Assembly: GCA_044223235.1 (NCBI GenBank)
Contig: JBGAME010000003.1
Direction: 5' to 3' (one strand)
From: Mycobacterium sp.
GTDB taxonomy: Bacteria; Actinomycetota; Actinomycetes; Mycobacteriales; Mycobacteriaceae
DNA: 64,000 bases
Shown: one piece after another, positions 50,679 through 58,223 of the stretch
Numbering within the stretch: the stretch's first letter is position 1
Layout: each line of letters starts with the position of its first letter
Notes under the pieces: model-generated
Told to the model about the DNA's origin: nothing
The model's input: only the letters and a program-made list of their open reading frames with translations
Database searches by the model: none
Position numbers and translations under genes: made by a program

Positions 50679-52972
50679 GACGACTCCGAAGGGCTGAGTC
50701 CCTTGGCCGAACCGGTCGGGACACCGACGCGGTTCAAGGCGTCGATCAGCTCGTCACGACGAACCGGCTTGCCCAGGTAGGCATCCGCACCCATGGCCGC
50801 GCCCCGCGGGCGGTCGTCGACCACCGTGGCGATGATCACCGGTATCGCCGCGGTTGCGGGCTGTGCCTTGAGTTCGGCAAGCACCTGCCAGCCGTTCAGC
50901 CGTGGCAGCTTGATATCGAGGACCACGGCCGCCGGCCGCACGCGGCGGATCAGGTCGAGGGCGTCCACACCGTCCCGTGCCCGCAGGACCCGGGTCGGCG
51001 TGCCGTCAAGGTAGGCCGACAGCAGATCCAGGGACGCCCGGTCGTCGTCGACGAGGACCACCACCGGTTCGTCGCTTGGGGATGCGGGGGCCTCGTCGGC
51101 GAGCGGCAGCAGTCCCGGTATCGAGAAGCCGAAGGTGCTGCCGGAGCCCACCGTGGTGTCCAGCCACATCCGCCCACCGAACAGCCCGACGATGCGCCGC
51201 GACAGCGTCAACCCGAGTCCGGTGCCCTCCTCCTTGGCGGGTCCCCTGCGGCCCTGCTGGAACGACTCGAAGATGCGATCCCGATCCTCTGGCGGCACGC
51301 CGATCCCGGTGTCGGTGACGGTGACGGTGAGTTCGCTGCCCTGCCGAGAGGCGCGCACCGACACACTGCCGCCGTCCGGGGTGAACTTGACGGCGTTGGA
51401 CAGCAGGTTGAGGACCACCTGCTTGAACCGCAGCTCATCCGCCTCGATCAACCCGACGTCGTCGGCGACGTGCAGTGTGACGGCGATGGCATGCAGCGCC
51501 GCCCGCTCGCGGACCATGGCCAGGCTGTACTCGAGGGCACCGGCCACGCCGAATGTGGCTCGCTCGAGCACCATCTGGCCCGCCTCGACCTTGGACAGGT
51601 CGAGTATCTCGTTGAGCAGTTCGAGGAGATGGCGGCCGGAGTTCCAGATGTCGCGCAGGTACTCGTCCTGCCGTTCGTTGATCTCGCCGAACATGCGCTC
51701 CAGCAAGACTTCTGAGAAGCCGATCACCGCGTTGAGCGGTGTCCGAAGTTCGTGGGACATGCTGGCCAGAAACTCGGACTTGTGCCGGCTGGCAACCTCG
51801 AGTTCGGTCGATTTGGTCTCCAGCTCACGGAATAGCCGCGCATTGACGATGGCCAGAGCCGACTGGCCGGCGAAGGTCTGCAGCAGTTCGATCACGTCGA
51901 GGGGGAAGCTGCCCGTCCCGCGTCGCCGGATCACCAGCACGCCGATGACCTTGTCGCCGCGCAGCATCGGGACGGCGAGCACCGAGCGCCAGCCGTCGCG
52001 GAACAGGACCTCCAGATAGTGGTCGAGATCGGCCTGGCTCAGATCGGGGATCTGAAGAGGCTTGCGGGCCCGCACGGCCCGACCGACCAACGTCGACTCC
52101 CCGTCGATGGTGATGGACCGCAGCTGCTCCAGAAGGTCGCGACGGCTGCCGAACACCGCCCGGACGAGGAACGAGTCGTTCGCCTCGTCGTACTCGAGGA
52201 TCGAACCGCCGTCGGTGCCCAGCGTGATGTCGCCGAAACCGAGGTTGGTCAGCCGCACGGCGTTGCTGACGATCCGGTCGAGGACCTCTTCGAGGTCGAG
52301 GCTCGAGCCGACGGCCTCGTTCACCTTGCGCAGCGCCTCGAGCTGGGTGACCTTGTTCGACAGCTCCGCACCTCTGGATTCGAGGGCGCGCATCAAGGTG
52401 ACCTGGCGCAGTGCGATCGCGCCCTGCGCGGCGAACTCCTCGAGCAGTTCGCATTCGCGCGCGTCGAACGGTGCGACCTCGGTCCGCCACATCGACAGCA
52501 CCCCGACGACCTCGTCCTGGAGCAGCATCGGTGTGGACAGCAGCGTGCGAAAGCCGGTGAGCCGCTGCAGATCACGCCGCCCGTAAGCAGCGTCGCTGAG
52601 CACGTCGGGAACCTGGTGGGTGCGCTTGTCCTCGGCAGCGCGCCCCACCGCGGACAACCGGTTTCGGGCGATCGGCTGGTCCAGCAGGAGTCTGCGGTAA
52701 TCCTCCGGGGTTTCGCCGGAGACCCGCGAGAGCCGGAACACGTCCCCGTCGAGCAGGAACAGCTGTGCGGCCCGCGCCCCGCACAGGCGCGCCGCGTACT
52801 CGAGCACGGTGTCGAGCACGGCGCCCGGGTTGGCCACGTCTCGACCGAGCGCCGCGAGGATCTCGCGGATGGCCGCGGACTGCTGGTGCGCCTCGCGCAG
52901 CGCCCGGTGCTCGTCGATCGGGTCGTCGGCGCTCGGGGTGGGAATGCTGGGGTCCGTCACGGCAACCGTCAC
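50675..52972 (-). CDS. Cytoplasmic hybrid histidine kinase: GAF-GAF-HisKA-HATPase_c-REC
   Basis: H-box SHELRTPLNAV, N-box LLSNAVKFT, G-boxes DTGIGV and GTGLGL, and a C-terminal REC VLVDDD...VLDIKLP..G...K. No TM segment. The GTG at 52972 overlaps the FHA stop (GTGA); an alternative GTG lies at 53002. Confidence 0.9.
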   Translation of the reverse strand: MTVAVTDPSIPTPSADDPIDEHRALREAHQQSAAIREILAALGRDVANPGAVLDTVLEYAARLCGARAAQLFLLDGDVFRLSRVSGETPEDYRRLLLDQPIARNRLSAVGRAAEDKRTHQVPDVLSDAAYGRRDLQRLTGFRTLLSTPMLLQDEVVGVLSMWRTEVAPFDARECELLEEFAAQGAIALRQVTLMRALESRGAELSNKVTQLEALRKVNEAVGSSLDLEEVLDRIVSNAVRLTNLGFGDITLGTDGGSILEYDEANDSFLVRAVFGSRRDLLEQLRSITIDGESTLVGRAVRARKPLQIPDLSQADLDHYLEVLFRDGWRSVLAVPMLRGDKVIGVLVIRRRGTGSFPLDVIELLQTFAGQSALAIVNARLFRELETKSTELEVASRHKSEFLASMSHELRTPLNAVIGFSEVLLERMFGEINERQDEYLRDIWNSGRHLLELLNEILDLSKVEAGQMVLERATFGVAGALEYSLAMVRERAALHAIAVTLHVADDVGLIEADELRFKQVVLNLLSNAVKFTPDGGSVSVRASRQGSELTVTVTDTGIGVPPEDRDRIFESFQQGRRGPAKEEGTGLGLTLSRRIVGLFGGRMWLDTTVGSGSTFGFSIPGLLPLADEAPASPSDEPVVVLVDDDRASLDLLSAYLDGTPTRVLRARDGVDALDLIRRVRPAAVVLDIKLPRLNGWQVLAELKAQPATAAIPVIIATVVDDRPRGAAMGADAYLGKPVRRDELIDALNRVGVPTGSAKGLSPSESS

Positions 52973-55947: not shown

Positions 55948-58223
55948 AACCGGGTCCTGGGACGAACCGCGTTTGCCTGCTCCACCAACGCGATACGGTC
56001 CCACATGTCGTCGGTGTCGTGAGCAAGGTCGCGGTAAGCGTGTTCCATACCCGTGCGGATCCCTCGTTCGTCGAAGTCCCCGCCGAGCAGTCGCGGGCTG
56101 GTGTTGTTGTTGCCCGCACGCAGCCACGCCAGCGCGCCGCCGAGCACCTGCAGCCGCAGCGACGCCCGCCTGGCCGCCGATTCCAGCTTCAGGGCGCCCG
56201 CCCGCGTGGCGGCGTCAAGTAGCGTCTGTTCGTCGGTGTCGGCGGGTGCCCGGCCGTCGAGGAGGATCTCGATCGCGGTCGCGCGGGCCGCCGTGCAGTG
56301 TGCCGACTCGGCGGGAACCTGGTCGAGCACTGCGACCGCGCCGACGCGGTCACCTGCCCTGACCCGCTGCCTGGCCAGTCCGAACGCCGCGCTGACGTAA
56401 CTGTGATCGGTGCGCCACACCGTCTCGTAGTAGTTACTTGTGCGGCCGCCCAGCTCGGCGGTCGCCGCGGCGGCCAGCTTTGGCGCCAACTCACCGGGCA
56501 GCATGCCCAGCACCGCTGCGAAATCTGCTGTCGCCAGGTCGAATTGGCCCTCCAGCAGTGCGCATTGCCCGCTGTACCATTTCAGCCGCCAATCGCCGGG
56601 GATCACCGGCTCCACCGCGGCGAGCCGCTTTCTGGCCCCCTGCGGATCGCCCAGTTCCAGCGACGCGCGCGCCAATCTCAGCGGAACCTCGACCGAGGAT
56701 GTGCGCAGCGGGTGCGCTCCACCCCTGGCCAGGCTGAGCGCCTGCTCGAGCTGGGCGGGTGAAGTACCGCTGGTGGTCGCCAGCACCCCCGCCCCGGAGT
56801 CGTTCGGGTCGACCACCGGCACCGGCAGCGCCGCGATCACATGGGGGGCGTCGACCGGCATGTCGCGGCCTGCGCCGAACACCGGGCGCTGCGGGCTGAA
56901 GTAGCTCGACATCCGGGGACGCTCGGTGCCGCTGTCGGCGGCCGCGATCTGGTGCAGCACCCCGGTGAGCTGATCGGTCATCTCCTCCATCGACGCGAAC
57001 CGCCGGCCGGGATCGGGGTCGGTGGCGCGCAGGATCGCCAGGTACAGCGATTCGTGCTGAGCCAGCACGGGCACGCTGTCGGGCCCCGGTAGCTGATCGA
57101 CGAAGCGTCCATGCTCCTGAGGCACATCCATGACGAGCACTGCCAGCGTGCGGCCCACCGTGTACACGTCGCTGGCGACGGTGGGTCCGGTGCTGGCGAT
57201 CTCGGGTGCCTGATAGCCGACGGTGCCGAAGATCGCACTGTCCAGATCGTCCATGGCGATGACGGCGCCCAGGTCGATCAACTTGAGTTGTTCGTCGGTC
57301 TGCATCACGTTGTCCGGCTTGAAGTCGCAGTAGGCCAGCCCCTGCGAGTGCAGGTAGCCGAGTGCCGGTGCGATCTCGACGATGTAGGCGACGGCCTGGT
57401 CGGGCGGCAGGGGGGCGTTGCGGGCCTTGCGGATCTGCTTGAGCGATGTGCCGCCGACGTACTCCATGACGATGTAGCCGACCGGAACGCCTGCGCTGTC
57501 GGGGTGTTCGACGAAGTTGTAGATCCGCACGATGTTGGGATGCTCCACACCGGCGAGGGTGAGCACCTCCGCGGCGGCCGCGGCCATGGCGTCGGCATCG
57601 CCGGAGTTCAGCAGTCCCTTGAGGACCACCCAGCGGCTGTGCACGTTTCTGTCGATGGCCAGATAGATCCAGCCGAGGCCGCCGTGTGCGATACAGCCCT
57701 GAACCTCGTACTGCCCGCCGACGAGATCACCACGGGAAAGCTTGGGAACAAAGGAGTATCGGGTGCCGCAGGCCGGGCAGAAGCCCTCCGCGCGTCCCGC
57801 TTGGCCGTCCCGCGCCCGCCCGACCGGTTTGCCGCATTCGGGATTGCCGCAGAACCGTTTGCCCTCCGGCACCTCTGGATTCGGCAGGATCGCGGCCGCC
57901 GGATCGCCCGTCGGCATGCGCGGCATCGTGACGACGCCCGCCCCGAGCCGCCCCCGGGTGCTCGACGACGTCGTCGAGGAGGTGCGTGCGGTCCTGGCCG
58001 AACCGGTGGTGGGGCGGCTCACCGCGGCCGCGGTGACCGGCCCCGCGGCCGCAGTGGCCGGCCCCTCGGATGTCGCGGGGGCCGATATCTGTCGGGAGGC
58101 CGTCGCCGGAGCTGCGGGCGCGGGCGTCGCGGGCGCGGGCGTCGCGGGTGCGGGCGCCGTGCCGCACACATCGCAATAGCCGTCGACGATGGTGCCGCCG
58201 CAGCCCGGCTCGCCGCACGTCAT
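55944..58223 (-). CDS. PknG-like Ser/Thr protein kinase: extra N-terminal zinc ribbon, T/P-rich linker, rubredoxin-like domain, kinase, TPR
   Basis: [16 protein letters not shown]...[49 protein letters not shown] and GTVGYQAPE, with a TPR-like C-terminus. These align closely with M. tuberculosis PknG as I recall it. The N-terminal [21 protein letters not shown] is additional. Confidence 0.9.

Follow-up and report, generated by a model that had tools for sequence, protein, structure and literature searches.

A seven-gene actinobacterial operon that may join an amino-acid sensor and a PknG-type kinase to an ArnA/ArnB-type phospho-switch

Genes of the operon and their conservation

The 64,000-nucleotide stretch of Mycobacterium sp. 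contig JBGAME010000003.1 (assembly GCA_044223235.1) that was analysed here, called the window below, carries a run of seven genes on its minus strand. In the order of transcription they encode a glnX-like membrane protein, a glnH-like lipoprotein, a helical protein (orf380), a PknG-type Ser/Thr kinase, a PP2C phosphatase, a protein with a von Willebrand factor A (vWA) domain and a protein with zinc ribbons and a forkhead-associated domain (ZnR-FHA; Table 1). The genes are joined by the junctions ATGA, TTGA, ATGA and GTGA, a 14-nt overlap and a 1-nt overlap, in that sequence. As the stop and start codons overlap, all seven genes are translationally coupled. A first-pass annotation, made from the sequence alone, had singled out the last four of them as a neighbourhood. 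This neighbourhood is real, but it is only the 3' part of the run: the four genes make up the distal portion of a single actinobacterial operon, which has seven genes, is translationally coupled and is inherited vertically; its glnX-glnH-pknG-type context had been missed. The vWA gene, which had been described as lying between the others, has the PP2C gene on one side and the FHA gene on the other, the order being kinase-PP2C-vWA-FHA. The PP2C does not start at the top of its 404-residue open reading frame (ORF) but most likely at the GTG at 55947, which overlaps the stop codon of the kinase gene (GTGA). The identification of the operon parts is firm, and the locus is a second, extended PknG-type system in this Mycobacterium genome. 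On balance, it seems probable that the operon joins an amino-acid sensor and a PknG-type kinase to a phospho-switch of the ArnA/ArnB type, with the ribbons of the kinase, phosphatase and FHA protein docking on the vWA protein as their hub.

Table 1. Genes and sequence features of the operon, with positions in the window
Feature	Position	Strand	Basis or remark
glnX-like membrane signal-transduction protein	60318..61904	-	NF058618; maximal ORF, true start probably near 61562-61631
glnH-like lipoprotein, solute-binding protein	59359..60321	-	Pfam SBP_bac_3; ATG overlaps glnX stop (ATGA)
orf380, conserved all-helical protein	58220..59362	-	start TTG 59362 or GTG 59356; overlaps glnH stop and kinase start
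PknG-type Ser/Thr kinase: ribbon, S/T-rich linker, rubredoxin module, kinase, TPR	55944..58223	-	Pfam
Kinase ribbon, residues 3-21	58161..58217	-	C-x4-C-x8-C-x2-C
Kinase S/T/P/A-rich disordered linker, residues 22-91; candidate autophosphorylation and FHA-docking segment	57951..58160	-	composition
PP2C phosphatase, N-terminal double zinc ribbon	54913..55947	-	Pfam PP2C and DZR
PP2C ribbon 1	55870..55926	-	Zn_Ribbon_1 match
PP2C ribbon 2	55744..55797	-	pattern scan and orthologue consensus
vWA protein, predicted ArnB-like: N-terminal strands, MIDAS vWA, beta-sandwich, C-terminal helical domain	53619..54926	-	VWA_3 and VWA_3_C
vWA C-terminal motif DEMALDARSTRTARV; candidate phospho-acceptor and FHA-binding site	53634..53678	-	conservation
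FHA protein, putative ArnA-like reader: two N-terminal ribbons, Pro/Ala-rich linker, FHA with N-terminal extension	52969..53619	-	
FHA-protein ribbon 1, CADGHDSTATDYCDVCG (Cys-His-Cys-Cys)	53560..53610	-	C4, H8, C16, C19 invariant in orthologues
FHA-protein ribbon 2, CPGCGAPIAGRFCETCG	53449..53499	-	C41, C44, C53, E54, C56 invariant

The operon was traced through other genomes by means of the vWA protein. An alignment of 8 vWA sequences was used to retrieve 80 genomic loci, one per species, onto which the proteins of the window were mapped; neighbours were counted in the 65 loci with enough flanking DNA. An FHA gene stands beside the vWA gene in all 65 loci, a kinase gene and a PP2C gene are near it in 63 each, and all three accompany it in 61. 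The gene for orf380 is present in 59 loci, glnX, on the upstream side, in 56, and glnH in 50; all six neighbours are kept in 46. The same order and strand are found in Mycobacterium, Nocardia, Pseudonocardiaceae, Streptosporangiaceae, Streptomyces, Kitasatospora and Streptacidiphilus, as well as in Solirubrobacterales, which belong to a different class. The identity of the vWA protein drops to 80, 65, 57, 53 and 52% with growing taxonomic distance, and the guanine-plus-cytosine (GC) content across the operon region is even with that of its flanks. The synteny, the identity gradient that follows taxonomy and the even GC content speak for vertical, housekeeping-type inheritance and not for a mobile island. 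Co-conservation, named beforehand as a point on which the four-gene grouping would stand or fall, is thus strongly borne out, with the four genes together in 61 of 65 loci from two actinobacterial classes. The glnX-glnH-linked PknG homologue of Streptomyces in these loci is of the extended type.

Several loci depart from the common layout. In two loci from Pseudonocardia and Pseudonocardiaceae (L029 and L031), the glnH-like and glnX-like genes have moved and lie inverted on the downstream side of the FHA gene; despite this rearrangement, the sensor pair is still linked to the module. In Streptosporangiaceae and related metagenome-assembled genomes (MAGs; L018-L028), an additional FHA gene lies upstream of glnX, and another PP2C gene lies downstream of ZnR-FHA. 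Two tandem vWA paralogues are present in one locus (L069).

The sensor half of the operon can be compared with known proteins. The glnX-like protein scores 373.8 bits against the NCBIfam 'GlnX family' model NF058618 (cut-off 250), but reaches 232 bits against the canonical equivalog NF041460, the cut-off of which is 780. As the latter cut-off is unmet, the protein is regarded as a paralogue and not as the PknG-activating orthologue. The glnH-like protein, which has a lipobox-like N-terminus (MRPRIWAAVLAVAVTAAC), matches GlnH of M. tuberculosis (6H1U) with 292 bits. Of the GlnH residues listed in PMC6069109 as contacting aspartate, R147, T162, S164, R169, W232 and D250 are conserved, whereas R stands in place of K161. 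The glnH-like protein thus keeps the Asp/Glu-binding residues with this one exception, and ligand binding is predicted. The kinase gives Pfam matches to PknG_rubred (6.6e-27), Pkinase (2.9e-30) and PknG_TPR (1.8e-102), the last a tetratricopeptide repeat (TPR) domain. It aligns with PknG of M. tuberculosis (2PZI) at 664 bits and about 53% identity, and its catalytic motifs VVLKG, DFKPDN and IDLG are intact. Its linker contains 14 Thr and 10 Ser in 70 residues (34% S/T), compared with 6.5% Thr in the protein overall, and the linkers of its orthologues are rich in S, T and R, with a mean Ser content of 19%. In PknG, N-terminal phosphothreonine (pThr) sites recruit the FHA domain of GarA/OdhI (PMC8546545). 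Taken together, the sequences show homology of the sensor half to the GlnH/GlnX/PknG amino-acid sensing cascade. In a distance tree without support values, which can serve as a hint only, M. tuberculosis PknG falls inside the radiation of the cluster kinases.

The third gene, orf380, gives no match in Pfam, NCBIfam or PADLOC, and its 661 homologues are all annotated as hypothetical. Its AlphaFold2 (AF2) model is all alpha, with a pLDDT of 82.9 (predicted local distance difference test); a Foldseek search of the PDB with this model returned no match under E 0.19.

The operon shares with the GlnX-GlnH-PknG-GarA/OdhI cascade of Mycobacterium and Corynebacterium (PMC6069109, PMC9769921, PMC8546545) three proteins in the same order, the rubredoxin-kinase-TPR architecture, the conserved GlnH ligand residues and an S/T-rich segment at the kinase N-terminus, of the sort by which an FHA partner is recruited. 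It differs in having four more genes (orf380, PP2C, vWA and ZnR-FHA), an additional N-terminal ribbon on the kinase and a GlnX that is a paralogue. The FHA partner is here encoded in cis, bears ribbons and lacks the ETTS motif. An extension of the PknG operon by PP2C, vWA and FHA genes is not mentioned in the PknG papers examined, and in the literature searched no account of this operon was found.

In the distal half, the PP2C matches the NCBIfam Stp1-type PP2C model with 92.7 bits and has the metal-binding motifs, including GHDNVT. The FHA protein matches Pfam FHA at 2e-13 and DZR below threshold; its pThr-binding residues G131-R132, S155, H158 and N177 are conserved. Judged by these motifs, the kinase, PP2C and FHA domains retain their catalytic or pThr-binding residues. 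The MIDAS of the vWA protein, its metal ion-dependent adhesion site, is complete (D60-x-S62-x-S64, T135 and D163) and does not vary among 25 diverse relatives with identities as low as 36%, and the sequence contains neither a signal peptide nor a transmembrane segment. The earlier description of this protein as a cytoplasmic vWA protein with a MIDAS therefore stands.

Neighbourhoods of vWA, PP2C, kinase and FHA genes had been mentioned in the first-pass annotation as putative conflict or signalling modules. One such system, TerY-P, was reportedly found by Gao in 2020 to act against phages. By analogy, the kinase-PP2C-vWA(-FHA) set would be a conflict or anti-phage module that senses metal or an invader and controls an effector, and the adjacency of glnX and glnH would be incidental. 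The composition does match the TerY-P triad as described in PMC11090510, namely a vWA protein with a perfect MIDAS, a PP2C and a zinc-ribbon Hanks kinase, which Anantharaman 2012, as summarised there, proposed to be a phosphorylation switch. The kinase(ZnR)-PP2C-vWA theme also occurs in actinobacterial GTPase-centred conflict systems (Kaur et al. 2020). Moreover, positions 1-6906 of the JGI metagenome contig Ga0247823_10001449 (L081) hold a variant module in a conflict-like setting, with the order EACC1, caspase-like Peptidase_C14, PknG_TPR kinase, vWA-FHA fusion without ribbons and a 242-residue protein with a HELGH (HExxH) metalloprotease motif; the kinase has the N-terminal ribbon and lacks the rubredoxin module. 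A 735-residue relative with vWA and VWA_3_C domains (P0264) has a C-terminal TIR_2 match of 27.2 bits, just below the 28-bit cut-off, and by this match it is possibly an effector fusion.

Several observations speak against such a function for the operon. At E<=0.01, PADLOC has no family for the vWA, PP2C, FHA or orf380 proteins and matches the kinase only with generic models. The TerY-P kinase carries its ribbon or an OB fold at the C-terminus (PMC11090510), whereas the kinase of the operon has its ribbon at the N-terminus and ends in the PknG TPR domain. An FHA reader, GlnH and GlnX are all absent from TerY-P. The triad lies in defence islands, whereas the locus described here is syntenic across two classes, follows the taxonomic identity gradient, is coupled to glnX-glnH and has a GC content uniform with its flanks, which is not the pattern of a patchy island. 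No effector gene (nuclease, protease or TIR) is conserved in the operon. A conflict module must thus be considered very unlikely here, and the operon is interpreted below as an amino-acid-responsive phospho-switch.

Zinc ribbons of the kinase, phosphatase and FHA protein

The kinase, the PP2C and the FHA protein had been proposed to share one N-terminal zinc-ribbon tag of the pattern C-x2-C-x7-11-[FY]C-x2-CG. All ribbon peptides quoted in support of this proposal are found verbatim on the minus strand. The pattern fits three of the five ribbons, but the first knuckle of the kinase ribbon is C-x4-C and that of FHA ribbon 1 is C-x3-H. When the 64-kb window was scanned in six frames, the strict pattern gave 3 matches and a relaxed one, C-x2-4-[CH]-x6-12-[FYW]C-x2-CG, gave 5, compared with 0.0 and 0.04, respectively, after residue shuffling. 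Every match falls in the kinase, PP2C or FHA gene. The five ribbons are real, far beyond chance.

In all three proteins, orthologues from Mycobacterium through Streptomyces to Solirubrobacterales keep the ribbons, and each ribbon has its own signature. The kinase ribbon reads C-x-x-P-x-C-x-G...DGYC-D-x-CG, PP2C ribbon 1 CPxC...D[RS]FC[EG]xCG and PP2C ribbon 2 CxxC...DGYCExCG. FHA ribbon 1 is CPxGHxSxxxD[YFW]C[DE]xCG, in which the His is invariant, and FHA ribbon 2 is CPxCG...GRFC-E-x-CG. The kinase ribbon is tandemly duplicated in Nocardia, some Pseudonocardiaceae, Kitasatospora, Streptacidiphilus and Actinocrinis, and the loci with these kinase-ribbon variants are L008-L015, L029, L030, L039, L055-L057, L062, L075 and L080. 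The kinase ribbons of Streptomyces have an enlarged loop (..YEDVGGGELYCDTCG). The linkers that connect the ribbons to the catalytic or reader domains are of low complexity and from 10 to about 400 residues long. In Streptomyces (L046-L078), the linker of the FHA protein is expanded to 200-400 Pro/Gly-rich residues and 120-250 residues separate the two PP2C ribbons; the ribbons of both proteins are still conserved.

The five ribbon classes were compared with each other as orthologue profiles. The hhalign probabilities range from 80 to 98%, the top pair being PP2C ribbon 1 and FHA ribbon 2 (98%). The closest profile match of PP2C ribbon 2 is the kinase ribbon (95.6%). Shuffling of the non-Cys columns lowers the scores to 6-17, so that the similarity between the classes is above that of Cys-preserving shuffles. 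The rubredoxin knuckles of the same kinases, however, match PP2C ribbon 1 at 95%. As the PknG rubredoxin knuckles score nearly as high as the ribbons do, most of the similarity between the ribbons is attributed to that of zinc knuckles in general.

Searches with zinc-ribbon profiles, which had been called for, gave a divided result. The whole PP2C scores 28.1 bits against Pfam DZR (PF12773), where the cut-off is 27.3. When the ribbons were scanned alone, PP2C ribbon 1 was the only one above a Pfam threshold (Zn_Ribbon_1, PF13240; 26.6 bits, cut-off 25), FHA ribbon 2 gave a sub-threshold zinc-ribbon score of 20.6 bits, and the kinase ribbon, PP2C ribbon 2 and FHA ribbon 1 gave no Pfam match. 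The notion of one shared tag is not supported: each ribbon has a signature of its own, and most of the likeness between the profiles is generic. In our reading, the ribbons probably form one broad class of small zinc ribbons, within which PP2C ribbon 1 and FHA ribbon 2 are clearly alike, and are not copies of a single tag.

These properties might also be explained if the ribbons were independent, generic modules with no common partner, for example intramolecular regulatory or redox-sensitive modules comparable to the rubredoxin domain of PknG, or modules for solubility or a membrane-proximal position. The FHA protein would then dock only on the phosphorylated linker of the kinase, as GarA does on PknG, and the vWA protein would be a substrate or an unrelated passenger in an otherwise ordinary kinase, phosphatase and FHA set. 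The separate signatures, the single ribbon above a Pfam threshold and a similarity between classes that the rubredoxin knuckles about equal all agree with this explanation. In addition, the rubredoxin module of PknG modulates kinase activity (PMC8546545), DZR-type ribbons are found on many signalling proteins, and zinc ribbons occur on actinobacterial kinases and GTPases (Kaur et al. 2020). On the other hand, the ribbons are kept in all three proteins across more than class-level divergence, despite linkers of 10 to 400 residues, and the kinase, PP2C and FHA genes stay together with the vWA gene in 61 of 65 loci. Two further observations, the alignment of the FHA-protein ribbon with a zinc finger that is crystallographically bound to a vWA protein of the ArnB type and the loss of the ribbons upon fusion of the FHA domain to the vWA protein, are described below. 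With these included, independent ribbons are a possible but rather improbable explanation.

Comparison with ArnA and ArnB and the proposed hub

The vWA protein matches a structural-genomics entry, 4FX5 (Caci_2163 of Catenulispora acidiphila), over its full length, with E 1.3e-123 and about 55-60% identity. Caci_2163 is thus a direct homologue, and the Arn papers call it a structural orthologue of ArnB. Its function and gene context are not discussed in the Arn papers examined. According to Hoffmann et al. 2019 (PMC6509490), 4FX5 shares the tripartite build of ArnB and ArnE of S. acidocaldarius, namely a vWA domain, an inserted beta-sandwich and, at the C-terminus, a bundle of four helices. In a Foldseek search with the AF2 model of the vWA protein, 4FX5 was first, the ArnB chains 8S05_A/B were second and third (E 1.4e-17, 407 columns, TM-scores of 0.48/0.54) and ArnE (5A8J) was seventh; ArnB is therefore the best structural match after the direct orthologue. 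The profile of the vWA family also matches ArnB by sequence, with E 4.9e-13. The model and these matches show a predicted ArnB-type tripartite build with an intact MIDAS.

A similar relation is found for the FHA protein. When the profile of its orthologues was compared with the PDB, ArnA (5A8I, 8S05_C) was the second and third best match (E 5e-9), and the alignment is co-linear from ribbon 2 through the end of the FHA domain. The zinc finger of ArnA, CNLCGYENDDDALFCIKCG, aligns with ribbon 2 and fits C-x2-C...FC-x2-CG exactly. For GarA/OdhI and other FHA proteins, the alignment is limited to the FHA core. The FHA protein is thus co-linear with archaeal ArnA, in the order zinc ribbon, disordered linker, FHA domain.

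The FHA protein might instead belong to an ancestral, complete form of the PknG-GarA pathway. It would then be a GarA-like inhibitor of enzymes at the 2-oxoglutarate node, switched off by the kinase and on by the PP2C, and the vWA protein would be an accessory, chaperone-like component. The kinase, GlnH and GlnX are indeed close homologues of the canonical proteins, M. tuberculosis PknG lies inside the radiation of the cluster kinases in the distance tree (weak, no bootstrap), and the FHA domains of GarA/OdhI rank near the top of the PDB entries matched by the FHA profile (E about 1e-8). However, no conserved Thr that could serve as an ETTS-like phospho-acceptor is present in the linker among the orthologues of the FHA protein, which scores 22.7 bits against the OdhI equivalog (cut-off 200). 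GarA has no ribbons and no known vWA partner, and it lacks the alignment over the whole architecture that ArnA gives. A GarA-like role is hence unlikely, and the likeness to ArnA, on which the proposed phospho-switch is modelled, is preferred.

ArnA and ArnB are encoded by adjacent genes of Sulfolobus acidocaldarius and form a nutrient-responsive switch; in the Arn module, which represses motility, they act with the kinases ArnC/ArnD and the phosphatase PP2A (PMC6509490, PMC12852372, PMC5300886). [quoted passage not shown] The TPR-containing kinase ArnC phosphorylates the ArnB C-terminus, and binding of the ArnA FHA domain then gives a tight complex. In the 2026 co-crystal of unphosphorylated ArnAB (8S05), the zinc finger of ArnA alone holds ArnB's beta-sandwich as well as its C-terminal helical domain (PMC12852372). 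The conserved acidic residue after the third Cys of the ribbons (FC-E-x-CG, YC-D-x-CG) was considered as a ligand of the MIDAS, but this was dismissed as speculation, as the ribbon in ArnAB contacts the beta-sandwich and helical domains and not the MIDAS.

The two systems have in common adjacent genes for a zinc-ribbon-linker-FHA protein and a tripartite MIDAS vWA protein, a Hanks kinase with TPR motifs, a dedicated phosphatase and, as predicted for the bacterial system, a Ser/Thr phospho-switch that depends on nutrients. The system described here is bacterial, has an extra Cys-His-Cys-Cys ribbon on the FHA protein, and encodes in the same operon a ribbon-bearing kinase and a ribbon-bearing phosphatase that is a PP2C and not a PP2A. 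Its kinase is of the PknG type with a rubredoxin module and is coupled to the GlnH/GlnX sensor and orf380. Its output cannot be the archaellum.

A fusion of two of the proteins bears on the role of the ribbons. P0204 comes from two independent assemblies, one of them an Actinokineospora MAG. It has the FHA domain fused straight onto the C-terminus of the vWA protein and carries no ribbons; the PknG_TPR kinase beside the fusion retains its N-terminal ribbon. The lack of ribbons in the vWA-FHA fusion thus fits with the ribbons being the tether of the reader to the vWA protein.

The C-terminus of the vWA protein contains a motif, ...RST[RK]T.R., in which M419, L421, R424, S425, T428 and R430 are invariant in 28 sequences from several orders and D417 is near-invariant (at least 90%) in the same set. 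T428 is also nearly invariant in the 25 most diverse relatives. From its position and conservation, we infer that the motif may be the phospho-acceptor and FHA-binding site.

These comparisons allow the operation of the switch to be outlined. Extracellular Asp or Glu would be bound by GlnH, and the signal would be relayed via GlnX, perhaps with the help of orf380, to the TPR domain of the kinase. The kinase would autophosphorylate its S/T-rich N-terminal linker and phosphorylate Thr residues in the C-terminal helical domain of the vWA protein, within the invariant motif. The FHA reader, which its ribbon would already tether loosely to the vWA protein at the beta-sandwich and the helical domain, as in ArnA-ArnB, would then clamp on the pThr sites, and the complex would change from loose to tight. 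The PP2C would reset the switch. The ribbons of the kinase and the PP2C would use the same vWA hub, so that writer, eraser and reader would be held on one platform.

The earlier suggestion that the three ribbon-bearing proteins assemble on a common scaffold thus has a structural precedent in the zinc finger of ArnA on ArnB (8S05), but for the kinase and PP2C the docking of the ribbons on the vWA protein is inference only. Several other points weigh against the hub mechanism as outlined. The target of the FHA domain could be the linker of the kinase, as PknG recruits its FHA substrate via its own N-terminal pThr. The sequence similarity to ArnB and ArnA is weak (12-15% identity), the AF2 model of the vWA protein is of no more than moderate quality (pLDDT 66.9), and this protein's C-terminal domain, when compared with the PDB by sequence, matches only 4FX5 and gives no link to the helical bundle of ArnB. 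The MIDAS is left without an explained role, and glnH and glnX are absent or rearranged in about a quarter of the 65 loci. The rubredoxin knuckles and the three ribbons without a Pfam match, described above, belong to the same list. To our knowledge, the Sulfolobus kinases and PP2A have not been reported to bear such ribbons.

Related systems, neighbouring genes and significance

An operon of Deinococcus radiodurans, DRA0331-DRA0334, contains, by its description, the same four functional parts (bioRxiv 10.64898/2026.01.23.701218). It encodes a vWA protein, a transmembrane Ser/Thr protein kinase, an FHA protein described as a FraH orthologue and an FHA-PP2C. The FHA protein and the PP2C act antagonistically on the kinases, and the vWA protein has been proposed to be a scaffold (same source). 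The Deinococcus kinase, however, is a transmembrane protein and not a PknG, the phosphatase has a KI-FHA domain in place of ribbons, and zinc ribbons are not mentioned in that report.

Many relatives of the vWA protein are 700-890 residues long (P0126, P0129, P0137 and P0153) and bear an N-terminal extension of 260-470 residues. The extensions consist of hydrophobic and Arg-rich repeats, probably membrane or amphipathic helices, and contain no Pfam domain, which suggests that the extended relatives are membrane-anchored forms of the putative hub. Fusion to a PP2C was considered for these extensions and rejected, as the transmembrane and Arg-rich segments have no Pfam domain. P0069 (759 residues) is not a PP2C-vWA fusion either, but a gene call garbled by a frameshift.

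Directly downstream of the operon, at 49183-52972 of the window on the minus strand, are genes for a hybrid histidine kinase (GAF-GAF-HisKA-HATPase-REC), a stand-alone receiver and a receiver-adenylate/guanylate cyclase. The histidine kinase gene has an in-frame GTG at 52972 that overlaps the stop codon of the FHA gene (GTGA), and the three genes overlap one another. They follow the operon in the mycobacterial loci and are not conserved outside them. The hybrid histidine kinase is next to the FHA gene in four mycobacterial loci (L001, L005, L006 and L007), but other genera lack it there; it may provide either an output specific to this lineage or a second input. Just past the cyclase gene, at 47612-49345 on the minus strand, lies a gene for a 577-residue protein with IQCH-like ATP-grasp and PGM1_C domains.

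In actinobacteria, PknG is a kinase of central importance for metabolism and virulence. Much is known of its GlnH/GlnX sensor and of its FHA substrate, but all of it concerns the three-gene form. The locus described here reveals a widespread extended form of the PknG system, which has its own phosphatase, FHA reader, vWA platform and the helical protein orf380. The link to ArnA/ArnB supplies a functional context for the orphan structure 4FX5 and provides the Arn field with a counterpart in bacteria whose input is defined, namely an amino-acid sensor. It also gives a concrete model for the vWA protein in vWA/PP2C/kinase/FHA neighbourhoods, in which ribbon docking would be followed by a pThr clamp.

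A further-reaching view is that the vWA protein is a dedicated hub which recruits the ribbon-tagged writer, eraser and reader and the loose or tight state of which is set by extracellular Asp/Glu via GlnH/GlnX. The seven-gene operon would then be ancestral, the three-gene PknG operon of mycobacteria and corynebacteria with a separate GarA would be a reduced form, and homology to ArnA/ArnB would make the switch an ancient nutrient-responsive device of Archaea and Actinomycetota. This view can be put forward only tentatively and is perhaps more doubtful than probable. If it is true that all three ribbons bind one hub, the operon would exemplify a simple and general bacterial way to insulate a Ser/Thr circuit.

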